The notes: generated by a model not told the origin, from the letters alone. Numbered from the stretch's first letter, positions 58,562 to 64,000 are shown. The stretch: 64,000 bases of DNA from Candidatus Omnitrophica bacterium UBA6215 (GCA_002421665.1 DISH01000007.1:81278-145277), one strand, 5' to 3'. Numbers and translations: made by a program.

Positions 58562-59397
58562 GCCTTCCTGGGGGTCTTGAGCTTCTTCCTAACTTCCTCA
58601 ATAAGGATATCCGGTGTGGAAGCCCCGCCGATTATTCCTACGGACTTGGCATTCCTGTACTTACGGGGGTCCAGGTCCTTGGCACCTTCTATCTGTATGG
58701 TATTCCCGTTATATTTTAAGCAGAGTTTCTTGAGCTTTATCGTGTTGGAGCTATGGTGGCTGCCTACAACTATCATAAGGTCCGCCTTCTTGGCAAGCCT
58801 GACCGCATCTTCCTGCCTTTTGCGTATATCTGCGCAGATGGTATTGACGATCTTTATCTCATGGGCTACCTTCATAACTTCAGCCACAACATCCCTGCAC
58901 AACTCTATCGAATGTGTGGTCTGGAATATCATGCCGACCCTGCTCTTGAGCTTCGCCGGGTCCACTTCCCTGTAGTTGGCAACCACCAGGGCATCGTTCT
59001 TAAGATGGCCGAGTATTCCCTTGATCTCGGCATGCGAACTGTCGCCGACTATCAGCACCTGGTAACCTTCCTCTTCCAGTTTCTTCGCAGAGACCTGCGC
59101 CTGCCTGACGATCGGGCAGGTAGCATCGACTATCTCTATCTTCTTCTCCTCGACCCTGGCCCTTTCGTCCGGGGATATCCCGTGGGCCCTTATTATAAGA
59201 GTTCCGCCTTTTATCTGGCCTATGCTCTTTATCTCGGTAAGACCTTTTTCGGAAAGCTTTTTAGTTATCACGTCATTATGGACCAATTCGCCGTTTATAT
59301 AAGCCTGCGGCCTGCTTCGCAGCGTATCCTCGGTCAACTTGACGGCACGGTTAACGCCGAAACAGCATCCTATCTTCTTCGGGGTCAATATCTTCAT
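58558..59397 (-). CDS. ispH: 4-hydroxy-3-methylbut-2-enyl diphosphate reductase (IspH/LytB)
   Basis: Conserved Cys residues (…GCCFGVNRA…, …DATCP…, …NTICAD…). Confidence 0.8.
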   Translation of the reverse strand: MKILTPKKIGCCFGVNRAVKLTEDTLRSRPQAYINGELVHNDVITKKLSEKGLTEIKSIGQIKGGTLIIRAHGISPDERARVEEKKIEIVDATCPIVRQAQVSAKKLEEEGYQVLIVGDSSHAEIKGILGHLKNDALVVANYREVDPAKLKSRVGMIFQTTHSIELCRDVVAEVMKVAHEIKIVNTICADIRKRQEDAVRLAKKADLMIVVGSHHSSNTIKLKKLCLKYNGNTIQIEGAKDLDPRKYRNAKSVGIIGGASTPDILIEEVRKKLKTPRKA

Positions 59398-60407
59398 TTA
59401 GTCCTCCGTTTTGCATATCCTTTGGAATAGAACCATTCTACGGCTCTCTTGAAAGCGTCTTCTATATTGCTCTGCGGCAAACCCAGCTCCCTTACCGCCT
59501 TGGAAGAATCAAAGGCAAAGGGTTTTCCGGCCAGCCTCAACCCTTCCCACGGCACAGGCGGCTCGCTGTGCGTTATGTTCTCCGAGATCTTTGCACACAA
59601 AAACCCTATCGGCAGAAGCGGTAAAACCGGAAGCCTGAACTTAGGTGCCGGTATACCCGTCAACCGGTTCAATATCGAAAAAACTTCCTCGAGACTAAGG
59701 TTATGCGCGCCCAATATATAACGCTCACCCGTCCTCCCGGAAACCTCCGCCGCAAGGTGTCCGGCAGCAACATCGTCAACGTCAATGTAATTTATAACGG
59801 TACCGATATATGCCGGGAGTTTCCCGTTCAGGAAATCGACTATCATCTTCCCGGGAGGTGTGGGTTTATAATCACCGTCCCCTATAGGGGTAGTCGGGCT
59901 TACTATCGTAACCGGGAGCCCCTTCTTTGAGTAATCAAGCGCTTCCCTGTACGCCAAAAACTTGGAACGTGTATAATGCCCCGGCATTCCGTCTATCCCG
60001 GGAGCCGGGCTCTCCTCGTTGCACGGGCTGTCCTTTGAACCTCCGCCCATTATAGCGGCAGTATTCGTATATACCACTTTCCCGATCCCCTCCTCCAGGC
60101 AGGCCTGAAAGACATTCTTGGAACCCTTCCAGTTTATATCGTATACCGCAGCAGGGTCAGGATACCACAAATGGGCATATGCGGCGGTGTGGTAAACCGT
60201 TTTAGACGCCCCTATCGCTCTTTTTACGGAATCATAATCACGTACATCGCCGTAGACCAGCTCCACGTCACGGCGGATGCCGCCTTCCACCAGGTTCATG
60301 AGGTTTGTGTCCTTGCGGACAAAACAACGGACTTTTTCTCCTCTCTTTAAAAGCAGGCGGACTATCCTGGAACCGACAAAGCCGTTAGCTCCGGTAATAA
60401 GTATCAT
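59394..60407 (-). CDS. NAD-dependent epimerase/dehydratase (SDR; HpnA-like)
   Basis: MILITGANGFVGSRIV Rossmann motif and YxxxK. Confidence 0.7.
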   Translation of the reverse strand: MILITGANGFVGSRIVRLLLKRGEKVRCFVRKDTNLMNLVEGGIRRDVELVYGDVRDYDSVKRAIGASKTVYHTAAYAHLWYPDPAAVYDINWKGSKNVFQACLEEGIGKVVYTNTAAIMGGGSKDSPCNEESPAPGIDGMPGHYTRSKFLAYREALDYSKKGLPVTIVSPTTPIGDGDYKPTPPGKMIVDFLNGKLPAYIGTVINYIDVDDVAAGHLAAEVSGRTGERYILGAHNLSLEEVFSILNRLTGIPAPKFRLPVLPLLPIGFLCAKISENITHSEPPVPWEGLRLAGKPFAFDSSKAVRELGLPQSNIEDAFKRAVEWFYSKGYAKRRTK

Positions 60408-61366
60408 TTTGGGGTTTTCCAGTATACGACCAAGCCAAAACCGGCCCAGGCTATTTCTCGTATACGCTTGATTATGCTCAAAGCGACACCGATCTCTCCG
60501 CCGATCCCGAGAGCGGCAAGCACCGCATATCCGGCCCCCTCCTGGACGCCAAGCGCGGCCGGAACGAAAAAGAATGCCGAATTAGCCGTCTTGAAGAAAA
60601 CCTCTATCACAAGGGCCTTGGTCCAATCCACCTGGACACCCAGGAAATACAATATGAGATATACTTCTATGAGGCCCGCGAACCACCCGAGCAGGTGGAA
60701 AAGGAACGAAAGGAAGAACCGCGGCCTTTCCCTGGAATAGAAATCGTTTATTACCTTGTCGATCTCCTCAAGGCTCGCCTTCTTTCCTTCAAAAGCCTCG
60801 TTCAGTTTGAACTTACGGGCCATCTTAAGGCCCAGCATGAACAAACCCTTCTTTTGGAGAAAAAGAAAAATCACAAGAAGCGCAAGGACGCCCCCAAAAG
60901 TCCAAAGTATCCCGGTGGCAATGATCCCCTCGAACCTGAATATCTTTATGGCGATCACTATGCCGGTCAGGAGAAAGACTACCTTGCTAAGGAACAACGA
61001 TGTCTTCGCTATCACAACGCTGGCAAGCCCGTCTACCAGCTCCACCCCGTCACGGCGCCTTAAGACCAGGGCTTTTACGGGTTCCCCGCCGATGTAAGCG
61101 GTCGGCGTAGTATAATTTATGGCCTCTCCTGCCTGCCTGGCCAGGAAAAACCGCCACAGGTTCGGAAGTCGGACCTCTTTACGGAACGCCCAGCGCCATC
61201 CGGTGGTGTCAAAATAATATATGACAAGGTATGCAAGGATCACCGCCAATATTCGCCAGTTAAGCGAGACCAGCTGTGAGAGTATAAGGGACGGTCCCGA
61301 CTTGAATATTATCCAGACGAACAGCCCTGCGGCTAAAATCAGTACGAAACCTTTTAATGCCTTCAT
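60404..61366 (-). CDS. Lysylphosphatidylglycerol-synthase-TM-region / HpnL-like flippase-like membrane protein
   Basis: 8-TM protein resembling the LPG_synthase_TM family. Confidence 0.5.
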   Translation of the reverse strand: MKALKGFVLILAAGLFVWIIFKSGPSLILSQLVSLNWRILAVILAYLVIYYFDTTGWRWAFRKEVRLPNLWRFFLARQAGEAINYTTPTAYIGGEPVKALVLRRRDGVELVDGLASVVIAKTSLFLSKVVFLLTGIVIAIKIFRFEGIIATGILWTFGGVLALLVIFLFLQKKGLFMLGLKMARKFKLNEAFEGKKASLEEIDKVINDFYSRERPRFFLSFLFHLLGWFAGLIEVYLILYFLGVQVDWTKALVIEVFFKTANSAFFFVPAALGVQEGAGYAVLAALGIGGEIGVALSIIKRIREIAWAGFGLVVYWKTPK

Positions 61367-62745: not shown

Positions 62746-63824
62746 TCCTTCATCAACCCCTTGGCTATATTTATTATCCTGTTAGCATCGGAGCGGCTTA
62801 TTTGGCCCATGTTTGCGATCCTGAATATATTGCCTTTCAATTTCGACTGGCCGGCATATATGATGAACCCTTTCAATTTGAATGTCCTGTGGAGTTTTTC
62901 ATAAGTTATCCCTCTCGGGACCAGGAAAGCCGTTATCGTATTTGAATGGTATTCCGGGTCTATCAGGTATTCGAAACCGGCAGTTTCAAAACCCTCCCTT
63001 AGGAGAGCGGCCATCTGCCTGTACCTGTTTATGCGGCGGGTGACACCTTCTTTTATCAGTTCGTCCAACGCGCGTTCAAGCGCGAAGAATATCTGGACCG
63101 CCGGGGTAAAAAGAGGCGTACCTTCCTTCTGGCTTTTAAGGTTGGACGGGATATCAAAATATAACGTCCTCGGTCGCATACCCTTGACCGCGGCAAGCGC
63201 GGTCCTGCTGACCAGCACGAAAGAGACGCCCGGTACCGCCTCTATGCATTTATTCGCCGTTCCCACGCAAAGGTCTACATTCGCCTTTTTAAGGTTAATA
63301 TCTTCGCCCCCTAAAGCGCTTATGGAATCCAGCAGGAAGAGTTTACCGTATTTCCTGCAAAGAGCTCCCGCCTTATATACGGGATTCAAGATGCCGGTGG
63401 AGGTCTCGTGATGGACCATTGCCACGACAGCTATTGACCGATCAGACTTAAGTCTCTTCTCAACTGAGTCCATGTCGGGTATCCGCATAATATCAGACTT
63501 AAGATCGACTATACCTATATTGTGGCGCCTTGCGATCTCGGCTATCCTTCCGCCGTAGACGCCGTTGTTGACAACCAATATCTTCCTGCCGGGCCCGACG
63601 CACGATGAGACGGCGGCTTCCAGCGCGGCCGTCCCGGAACCCGTAAAGAAAACGGCCTCATAAGACCCTTTTACGGAAAACGCGCGCAGGAGTTTTTTTG
63701 CGCAGCTAAGCAGCAATGAGGAAAATTCGGGCTCCCGATGGCACATGTCCGGCGCCATAAGCGCTTTCCTGACGGACTCCTTGATATTTACCGGACCCGG
63801 ATTGAGCAGGATATATTTTTTCAT
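62742..63824 (-). CDS. Class-V aminotransferase, 2-aminoethylphosphonate:pyruvate transaminase (PhnW)-like
   Basis: LLNPGPV N-terminus and a PLP-Lys region. Preceded by a Ppd-like gene. Confidence 0.55.
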   Translation of the reverse strand: MKKYILLNPGPVNIKESVRKALMAPDMCHREPEFSSLLLSCAKKLLRAFSVKGSYEAVFFTGSGTAALEAAVSSCVGPGRKILVVNNGVYGGRIAEIARRHNIGIVDLKSDIMRIPDMDSVEKRLKSDRSIAVVAMVHHETSTGILNPVYKAGALCRKYGKLFLLDSISALGGEDINLKKANVDLCVGTANKCIEAVPGVSFVLVSRTALAAVKGMRPRTLYFDIPSNLKSQKEGTPLFTPAVQIFFALERALDELIKEGVTRRINRYRQMAALLREGFETAGFEYLIDPEYHSNTITAFLVPRGITYEKLHRTFKLKGFIIYAGQSKLKGNIFRIANMGQISRSDANRIINIAKGLMKE

Positions 63825-64000
63825 CCCTTTTTGAACCTCTCTGCGATCATGGGCGGCGCGATATCCACCCTCGGGACCTTGGCTGAAGGGTCGCGGCCTA
63901 CCTTTAAAAGCATAAAACCCGGCCCGTCTTTTGCTATCATATTCCTGAAATCAGCATCAAAATCCTCATCGGCTTCTTTCCTTATCACGCTCCTTATGCC
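63821..64000 (-). CDS. Phosphonopyruvate decarboxylase-like (TPP enzyme), C-terminal 59 aa only (partial at window end)
   Basis: Minus-strand translation …KDGPGFMLLKVGRDPSAKVPRVDIAPPMIAERFKKG* resembles Ppd C-termini. Its stop overlaps the transaminase start (ATGA). Confidence 0.4.
   Translation of the reverse strand, partial: GIRSVIRKEADEDFDADFRNMIAKDGPGFMLLKVGRDPSAKVPRVDIAPPMIAERFKKG

Follow-up and report, generated by a model that had tools for sequence, protein, structure and literature searches.

A Candidatus Omnitrophota hopanoid operon with an embedded module for a predicted aminoethylphosphonate-type head group

The 64,000-nucleotide stretch of Candidatus Omnitrophica bacterium UBA6215 that was analyzed here (GCA_002421665.1, DISH01000007.1:81278-145277; hereafter the window) ends in nine tightly packed genes, all on the minus strand (57351-64000), which appear to be the downstream genes of a hopanoid operon, 14 genes long, from an uncultured member of Candidatus Omnitrophota and which include part of a module predicted to build and transfer a polar head group. 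In the direction of transcription, the window opens with the C-terminal 59 amino acids (aa) of TPPb, the beta subunit of a predicted thiamine pyrophosphate (TPP)-dependent decarboxylase whose alpha subunit is designated TPPa and the pair TPPab (63821-64000; TPP-enzyme C-domain), followed by AT5, a class-V aminotransferase of the AepZ/PhnW family (360 aa, 62742-63824; TIGR03301), NTP, a cytidylyltransferase of the LicC/PntC/IPCT group (238 aa, 62029-62745; PF12804 and PF00483), and CDPOH, a CDP-alcohol phosphotransferase (61367-62011 or 61367-62032, depending on the start codon; PF01066). Next come an LPG_synthase_TM or HpnL-like polytopic membrane protein (320 aa, 60404-61366; PF03706, TIGR03476), an HpnA-like extended short-chain dehydrogenase/reductase (SDR; 337 aa, 59394-60407; TIGR03466), IspH, the 4-hydroxy-3-methylbut-2-enyl diphosphate reductase (58558-59397; TIGR00216), an HpnG-like protein of the PNP/MTAN family (194 aa, 57977-58561; PF01048, TIGR03468) and, as the last gene, an Rpe-like protein (209 aa, 57351-57980; TIGR01163). 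Stop and start codons overlap as ATGA at six junctions (TPPb/AT5, AT5/NTP, HpnL/HpnA, HpnA/IspH, IspH/HpnG and HpnG/Rpe), the start of the HpnL-like gene is directly abutted by the CDPOH stop codon, and these genes are thus coupled in translation as a single operon on the minus strand. A promoter-like site (57343-57316, 11 of 12 positions matching) lies directly downstream of the Rpe-like stop codon, from which we take the operon to end at that gene. An earlier sequence-only reading of the window had named minus-strand open reading frames of this region and the ATGA-type coupling of several; all that it named were found where it had placed them, and the six overlaps are true ones. More than 10 distinct Omnitrophota contigs share this order of genes, and rearranged forms exist in other phyla; the arrangement is not a matter of chance.

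The sequence beyond the window end was obtained from L001, a 76.8-kb Logan contig that was retrieved by an exact-protein look-up of AT5, matches the window without a single difference across the 11,259 nucleotides that the two share and extends it by 9.8 kb (L and P numbers designate the contigs or loci compared). Upstream on this contig lie, in order, DUF116, squalene-hopene cyclase (SHC), HpnH (adenosylhopane synthase), X280, a conserved protein without family match, and the two decarboxylase subunits, TPPa (157 aa) and the complete TPPb (183 aa). Both the cyclase (TIGR01507, 656.9 bits against a cutoff of 431.1) and HpnH (TIGR03470, 397.3 bits against 225.05) score well above the cutoffs of their models, 1.7-4.8 kb past the window end, and they bear out the resemblance to hopanoid-associated clusters that the sequence-only reading had seen in the neighboring genes. 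That the locus is a hopanoid operon can thus be stated with high confidence. Its order is DUF116, SHC, HpnH, [X280, TPPa, TPPb, AT5, NTP, CDPOH, HpnL-like], HpnA, IspH, HpnG, Rpe-like, where the bracketed genes make up a head-group module inside the hopanoid operon. The genes at its two extremes, Rpe-like at the end (57351-57980) and DUF116 at the start (L001:4376-5164), are both conserved in the Omnitrophota versions; the Rpe-like gene of L002 is in two pieces, through either a frameshift or an assembly error.

Most of the other proteins score below the cutoffs of their models. The HpnA-like SDR, with its GxxGxxG and YxxxK motifs, has TIGR03466 as its best-scoring model (359.9 bits) but falls below the cutoff of 367.65; the HpnG-like protein, presumed to be an adenosylhopane nucleosidase or phosphorylase, scores 86 bits with PF01048 and has HpnG as its best NCBIfam model (TIGR03468, 83.2 bits, cutoff 187.1); and the Rpe-like protein is likewise below cutoff (TIGR01163, 167.5 bits against 212.6). 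IspH is above its cutoff (TIGR00216, 249.4 bits against 187.85) and, judged by its family, would supply isoprenoid precursors. The HpnL-like protein (PF03706, 118.9 bits; TIGR03476, the best model, 178.3 bits against 195.65) is a putative flippase or accessory factor for the modified lipid, and a homologue of it also lies downstream of CDPOH in clusters linked to PepM-like genes, e.g., L109 (158 bits), where no hopanoid genes were detected. The hpn clusters of Proteobacteria resemble the operon in uniting SHC, HpnH, HpnG-like, HpnA-like and HpnL-like proteins and IspH; they differ in that the operon adds a six-gene phosphonate-type module and in that its HpnA-, HpnL- and HpnG-like proteins lie below the equivalog cutoffs. 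To our knowledge, no described hpn cluster carries a module of this type. The functions of HpnA and HpnL are still open in the current literature (bioRxiv 10.1101/2025.07.29.667474; PMC12583986).

The association of the module with hopanoid genes extends well beyond the Omnitrophota. When the operon proteins were mapped onto 51 loci, with additional gene-context look-ups, the full gene order of the window was seen in Omnitrophota, where the module is surrounded or flanked by hopanoid genes in L008-L019 and L044. Hopanoid genes likewise enclose or adjoin it in NC10, Nitrospirae, Brocadiales, Scalindua and one 278-kb contig, each time arranged in its own way. The NC10 order is HpnH, a further gene (x), HpnG, NTP, CDPOH, X280, TPPab, HpnL, HpnA, polyprenyl synthase and squalene synthase (SQS), while in Brocadiia HpnJ (637 bits), HpnK (301 bits) and HpnI (349 bits), all above cutoff, precede X280, TPPab, AT5, NTP and CDPOH. 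In the Scalinduaceae locus L052, TPPab, AT5, NTP and CDPOH adjoin HpnI/K/J-like genes and X280 is located elsewhere in the same assembly (L022); in Nitrospirae (L021), HpnA and SHC adjoin an X280-TPPa pair; and L097 has the order SHC, HpnH, TPPab, AT5, CDPOH, HpnA, HpnG. Because the module is embedded among hpn genes in so many different orders, we argue that it yields a derivative of a hopanoid. Two variants of the module deserve description in their own right. NC10 locus L006 (GCA_046758825.1; 16003-18068 and 4741-5658) encodes no aminotransferase and has two Zn-dependent alcohol dehydrogenase (ADH) genes downstream, a combination that could yield a head group of hydroxyethyl instead of aminoethyl type; hpnH is adjoined at this locus by a CruF-like (PF04240) gene. 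L047, a contig from a metagenome-assembled genome (MAG) of Bathyarchaeota (JBDRNN010000038.1), has AT5, NTP, X280 and the decarboxylase genes in the order TPPba, with an SDR and a polytopic membrane protein of 597 aa encoded alongside, and the module is therefore confined neither to hopanoid producers nor to bacteria.

The decarboxylase of the module is encoded as two short proteins, of which TPPb occupies L001:9453-10004 and TPPa lies wholly beyond the window end. By family, the two are predicted to form a split TPP-dependent 2-oxoacid decarboxylase of the kind represented by phosphonopyruvate decarboxylase (Ppd) and sulfopyruvate decarboxylase (ComDE). The best match of TPPb in the Protein Data Bank (PDB) is RhiF (9iz3_B, 126 bits), and the split Ppd to which it belongs, RhiEF, is the only solved relative. 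The operon enzyme shares a two-subunit architecture of PYR and PP domains (~160 and 185 aa) with RhiEF, which decarboxylates phosphonopyruvate in the biosynthesis of rhizocticin (PDB 9IZ3), and with the sulfopyruvate decarboxylase ComDE (PMC12141560), but TPPb reads GGQPT where RhiF and some PepM-linked enzymes read GGQR(T/S). The GGQR/GGQP difference near the TPPb active site was considered as a means of telling Ppd from non-Ppd enzymes and was rejected, because QPT also occurs in enzymes linked to canonical PepM, the phosphoenolpyruvate (PEP) mutase. Three loci, L054, L115 and the P0310 contig, have a TPPb homologue (45-51% identity) that adjoins canonical PepM (EDKxFPKxNS); in each of them PepM is encoded directly upstream of the split decarboxylase, and L115 has AT5 as well. 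In a neighbor-joining tree of 111 beta subunits (no bootstrap), enzymes linked to X280 and to PepM are interleaved: the NC10 X280-type enzyme is sister to the PepM-type enzymes of L054/L060, the archaeal X280-type enzyme is sister to the PepM-type enzymes of L067/L072, and the Brocadiales X280-type enzymes lie near L123.

The three enzymes that would follow the decarboxylase are each assignable to a family. AT5 scores 356.0 bits with the PhnW-AepZ model TIGR03301 (cutoff 360.8), which is comparable to the 360.7 bits of the AT5 encoded next to a PepM-family gene in L109; its best PDB match is PhnW (1m32, 219.8 bits), the AepZ domain of Tde1415 (6pd1) follows with 182 bits, and the GTANKC motif with the pyridoxal phosphate lysine is intact. 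NTP has an intact GIGNRLKPLTDGIPK motif and, as its best PDB matches, LicC (1jyk, 52 bits), PntC-AepZ (6pd1, 43 bits over the full length) and IPCT (2xme, 40.6 bits). CDPOH is either 214 aa long, from an ATG at 62011 preceded by GGAGG, or 221 aa, from a TTG at 62032, and it combines a PF01066 match of 56 bits with about six hydrophobic or transmembrane segments and the motif DNCDGEVARAKGLSSHFGSWLDTLVD, so that the full pattern D(x)2DG(x)2AR(x)7-12G(x)3D(x)3D is present. Its nearest NCBIfam models are AIP synthase (66 bits), PIP synthase (64) and DIPPS (56), all far below cutoff. Profile scans and PDB matches thus uphold, at the family level, all of the calls made in the sequence-only reading: Ppd-like C-terminus, PhnW/AepZ-like aminotransferase, LicC/PntC-like nucleotidyltransferase, CDP-alcohol transferase, HpnL-like protein and HpnA-like SDR. 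The pairing of a soluble cytidylyltransferase with a CDP-alcohol phosphotransferase is shared with IPCT/DIPPS, the CTP:inositol-1-phosphate cytidylyltransferase and CDP-inositol transferase (PDB 4MND, 2XME), and with the Kennedy-type phosphotransferases that use CDP-ethanolamine or the corresponding conjugate of 2-aminoethylphosphonate (AEP), and in Brocadiia, NC10 and L109 the N-domain of CDPOH is itself IPCT-like (NF041135, 95-99 bits). However, the operon proteins score far below the cutoff (83 and 56 bits versus 580), an inositol-phosphate synthase is missing and the upstream enzymes would give a C2 amino compound rather than a cyclitol. The extended forms of CDPOH, of 396-479 aa, are encoded at L005:13796-15112 (Brocadiia), L006:8740-9930 (NC10) and L109:10458-11894 (linked to a PepM-like gene); in L005 and L109 the N-domain resembles the IPCT of bifunctional IPCT/DIPPS (95-99 bits) and exists besides a separate NTP, and the Omnitrophota CDPOH has no such extension.

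Taken in order, these families recall the phosphonyl-tailoring (Pnt) pathway of Ppm, Ppd, AepZ and PntC, which is exemplified by Treponema denticola Tde1413-1415 and for which a PntC-AepZ fusion has been characterized (Rice et al. 2019, PMC6697681). As in that pathway, a transferase comes after a decarboxylase, an aminotransferase of AepZ type and a cytidylyltransferase that is LicC-like, and relatives of the operon contain AT5-NTP fusions (L027, L031 and L035 among the loci mapped) that mirror the PntC-AepZ of Tde1415. The operon differs in having no Ppm in cis, X280 in the Ppm place and a split decarboxylase, in using CDPOH and an LPG_synthase_TM protein instead of LicD or a glycosyltransferase, and in having its module embedded among hopanoid genes. 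The fusions imply that the cytidylyltransferase acts on the amine product, which must hence carry a phosphate or phosphonate. In the pathway that we propose, the split TPP enzyme would decarboxylate a 3-substituted pyruvate, most probably phosphonopyruvate, to the aldehyde; AT5 would convert the aldehyde to a 2-aminoethyl compound, which would be AEP, in a step order backed by the fusions; NTP would join this compound with CTP to give a CMP or CDP conjugate; CDPOH, to judge from the placement of its gene, would move the phosph(on)ate head group to a lipid hydroxyl, most likely one in the side chain of the HpnH/HpnG product, ribosylhopane or bacteriohopanetetrol; and the HpnL-like protein might translocate the product or assist. 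AEP is favored as the head group with moderate confidence, and a hopanoid is the more likely acceptor when set against a glycerolipid or a glycan. For the scheme as a whole, in which an AEP-type head group is put on a hopanoid polyol by a Pnt/Kennedy-type pathway, we consider the chances to be about even. The sequence-only reading had proposed a phosphonolipid or phosphonoglycan locus; its AEP-type head group is retained as the best fit, and the acceptor is shifted toward a hopanoid.

Several observations weigh against this scheme, some of them bearing on the acceptor and others on the head group. As to the acceptor, the module occurs without detectable hopanoid genes in Bathyarchaeota L047 and in L053, and in the literature searches that were made, no paper tied hopanoids to either kind of decarboxylase, phosphonate or sulfopyruvate, or to head-group chemistry of the CDP-alcohol or cytidylyl type. 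Homologous modules of TPPab, AT5, NTP, CDPOH and HpnL-like genes are likewise present without detectable hpn genes in L059, L065, L074, L090, L109 and L123, and since the module has such an existence of its own, the hopanoid acceptor is something that we infer. The same CMP-AEP-type chemistry could instead serve a phosphono-glycerolipid or a glycan, with the hpn location reflecting co-regulation of membrane-lipid genes, and these hpn-free contigs, the Bathyarchaeota one included, speak for such an acceptor, as do the nearest models of CDPOH, which are the PIP and AIP synthases of glycerolipid or archaeol type. This alternative is nevertheless judged unlikely, in view of the at least five gene orders, spread over phyla, in which the module lies between hpnH and hpnA/hpnG or beside hpnIJK, and of its translational coupling with hpn genes in the operon described here, a co-location that is hard to credit to chance.

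The points that bear on the head group begin with the absence of pepM. No pepM (PF13714/TIGR02320 or the EDKxxxxxNS motif) is found in the 64-kb window or in the additional 9.8 kb of L001, where the sequence-only reading had proposed to look for it and where X280 occupies the pepM position, and no PepM homologue lies in cis in any of ~33 X280-linked loci. A complete set of TPPab, AT5, NTP, CDPOH and HpnL-like genes does occur beside PepM-family-NTP fusions in L109, L118 and L123; the PepM-family genes next to these closest full analogues, however, bear the motif EDNxFPKRCS and not the diagnostic EDKxxxxxNS, and their PEP mutase activity is for that reason only putative. This motif is present in 113 of the 120 best matches to the PepM-like domain of L123, and it is left out by the standard definition of Ppm, which relies on EDKxxxxxNS. 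The EDN-variant clade of the PepM family (L109:4481-6190 and L118:5519-7447, both on the minus strand; L123:2983-4941 on the plus strand; L075; L098; L137:2999-3945) is large and contains many fusions to NTP domains, and in L137, a contig from an Omnitrophica MAG, the EDN-variant PepM-like-NTP fusion adjoins ispH. Further, when the two halves of the operon decarboxylase are scored singly (the Ppd cutoff of 312.5 bits being a whole-protein value), they lie marginally nearer to the sulfopyruvate decarboxylase models than to the Ppd model TIGR03297, with all scores below cutoff: TPPa gives 119.1 bits with the alpha model TIGR03845 (cutoff 147.95) as against 114.3 with Ppd, and TPPb gives 186.4 bits with the beta model TIGR03846 (cutoff 221.5) as against 173.3. 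The PepM-linked split enzyme of L054 shows the opposite preference (Ppd 126.6 and 184.6; ComD/ComE 97.7 and 171.0). Lastly, substrate specificity in the NTP group is steric and cannot be read from sequence, and the LicC, PntC and IPCT matches are matches at the family level.

Much of this would be accounted for if the head group were not a phosphonate at all, and were derived either from sulfopyruvate, with taurine as the amine, or from 3-phosphohydroxypyruvate by way of phosphoethanolamine and CDP-ethanolamine. A pepM in cis would then be superfluous, the slightly higher ComD/ComE scores would be in keeping, and so would the fact that AT5, the HpnL-like protein and the decarboxylase all fall just below their equivalog cutoffs; 3-phosphohydroxypyruvate, moreover, is a universal metabolite. 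Yet we regard a head group of this kind as quite improbable. The AT5-NTP fusions imply that the amine is handed to the cytidylyltransferase, and we know of no case in which an enzyme of the NTP_transferase family activates a sulfonate; no com genes, comA, comB and comC included, were found in any of the contexts examined, and the decarboxylase lacks the above-cutoff scores that would mark the ComDE class. For the phosphohydroxypyruvate route, we expect on chemical grounds that a TPP-enamine formed on a beta-phosphate ester would favor elimination of the phosphate. The sister enzymes of the operon decarboxylase, finally, are linked to PepM. The sequence-only reading had envisioned the route from PEP through phosphonopyruvate and phosphonoacetaldehyde to AEP; the phosphonate logic still gives the best fit, as homologous modules are PepM-linked, while the PepM step itself is absent in cis.

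A further possibility reverses the roles of the two partners, with NTP activating the hopanoid rather than the small molecule. An HpnG phosphorylase would then produce ribosylhopane-1-phosphate, NTP would convert it to an NDP-ribosylhopane, and CDPOH would couple to it a small alcohol from the decarboxylase branch. The succession HpnG, NTP, CDPOH in NC10, the membership of NTP in the sugar-1-phosphate nucleotidyltransferase superfamily and the ADH variants of the cluster, which would yield an alcohol, are all compatible with such a scheme, but the variants with an aminotransferase yield an amine that has no free hydroxyl, and both the AT5-NTP fusions and the clusters that combine NTP with LicD and lack hopanoid genes (L055) indicate that a small molecule is activated. 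We think it very improbable.

X280 was called as a protein of 280 aa without a match in Pfam or NCBIfam, and its start is probably the ATG at L001:8113, which gives 286 aa and the conserved N-terminus MDWG(S/T)H. A word-indexed search yielded 136 homologues and a profile search 122 representative clusters among 1.84 billion proteins, distributed among Omnitrophota, Brocadiales, Scalinduaceae, NC10, Nitrospirae, Planctomycetota and one Bathyarchaeota MAG. In more than 30 loci, which represent at least five phyla, X280 lies directly upstream of the split decarboxylase, in the position of pepM; P0112/L007 (NC10) has it as a fusion with TPPa, and it was found together with a PepM-family gene in none of ~50 informative loci. 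Among loci ascertained through TPPb that have at least 4 kb on both flanks, 7 have PepM, 1 has X280, none has both and 11 have neither, from which it follows that the gene supplying the substrate is often in trans. An X280-TPPab set also occurs in L055 (hhalign probability 100%, E 2e-78), where its neighbors are an Fe-dependent ADH, NTP, a B12-radical-SAM protein and LicD, the usual partners in the tailoring of phosphonates of the hydroxyethylphosphonate (HEP) type. In Scalindua/Brocadiaceae, X280 is also encoded alone, away from the decarboxylase module (L022, L023, L025, L026, L028 and L029), and one MAG has two such solo copies (L028 and L029).

The AlphaFold2 model of X280 (pLDDT 89.7, pTM 0.89) is almost entirely alpha-helical; a Foldseek search of the PDB with this model returned nothing with an E-value below 1, and the X280 profile gave only noise against PDB sequences. 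The invariant residues D27, H34, R35, H39, H147, D151, N154, N155 and E224 suggest a metal site. There is a recurrent resemblance to the YdjM-like putative metal-dependent hydrolases (PF04307), seen in 15 of 62 distant members, that stays below threshold (best 19.6 bits; gathering score 29). The idea that X280 might be a divergent PepM was rejected, given the absence of a family match and a near all-alpha model as opposed to the TIM barrel of PepM. A zinc enzyme of the phospholipase C (PLC)/P1-nuclease type, an idea that arose from MDWGTH and SHxYFDxxNNP, found no support in the empty Foldseek and PDB profile searches, and hhalign against B. cereus PLC gave a probability of 0.6%. Nor was the mutual exclusivity of PepM and X280 accepted as proof that one replaces the other; it is only suggestive, as 11 loci have neither and X280 is unlinked in Scalinduaceae. 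The adjacency to the TPP enzyme, the single fusion and the lack of PepM in cis are compatible with both a substrate-supplying enzyme and an accessory protein. It is tempting to go further and to see in X280 a non-homologous replacement of PEP mutase, or some other novel way of making phosphonopyruvate, and in the product the first phosphono-hopanoid, an AEP-esterified bacteriohopanepolyol (BHP) of anaerobes such as Omnitrophota, anammox bacteria and NC10. This replacement is suggested by the pepM position, the TPPa fusion, the lack of co-occurrence with PepM and the interleaving of the partner decarboxylases, and the combined proposal is a speculative one to which we attach a low probability.

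The window contains other features of note away from the operon. A 1619-aa RHS-repeat protein (PF05593, 342 bits; 18188-23047, minus strand) adjoins a low-GC stretch with short open reading frames (10000-18000; GC 0.35-0.41 versus ~0.45-0.53 in most 2-kb windows elsewhere), and the two together could be an array of RHS toxin-tip and immunity cassettes. Between 23057 and 29181 (minus strand), an unusual protein of 1186 aa joins an outer-membrane efflux protein (OEP) to a PF10091 'glycoamylase' domain and to TPR repeats, and HlyD-like and GT2 genes come after it. A second PF10091 protein is encoded at 51088-53358 and a GH116 protein at 48865-51087.

Decorations of the hopanoid side chain serve as biomarkers, and the hopanoids of anammox bacteria and NC10 are used as environmental proxies, so the presence of the module in both of these groups bears on the field of hopanoid biomarkers. 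We know of no phosphorus-containing head group that has been described for a hopanoid; if such a head group were to exist, it would probably have been overlooked by standard BHP work-ups. The question of what HpnA and HpnL do dates back to the 1990s. Searches of the literature on phosphonate biosynthesis in anammox bacteria and on PepM-independent synthesis found nothing relevant. Producers of phosphonates are tallied through pepM genes with the EDKxxxxxNS motif, and clusters linked to X280 or to the EDNxFPKRCS variant would evade such surveys despite encoding the rest of the pathway; the production of phosphonates, or of their isosteres, by anaerobes may thus be undercounted. X280 itself, a compact protein of 286 aa, might represent an enzyme new to C-P metabolism.

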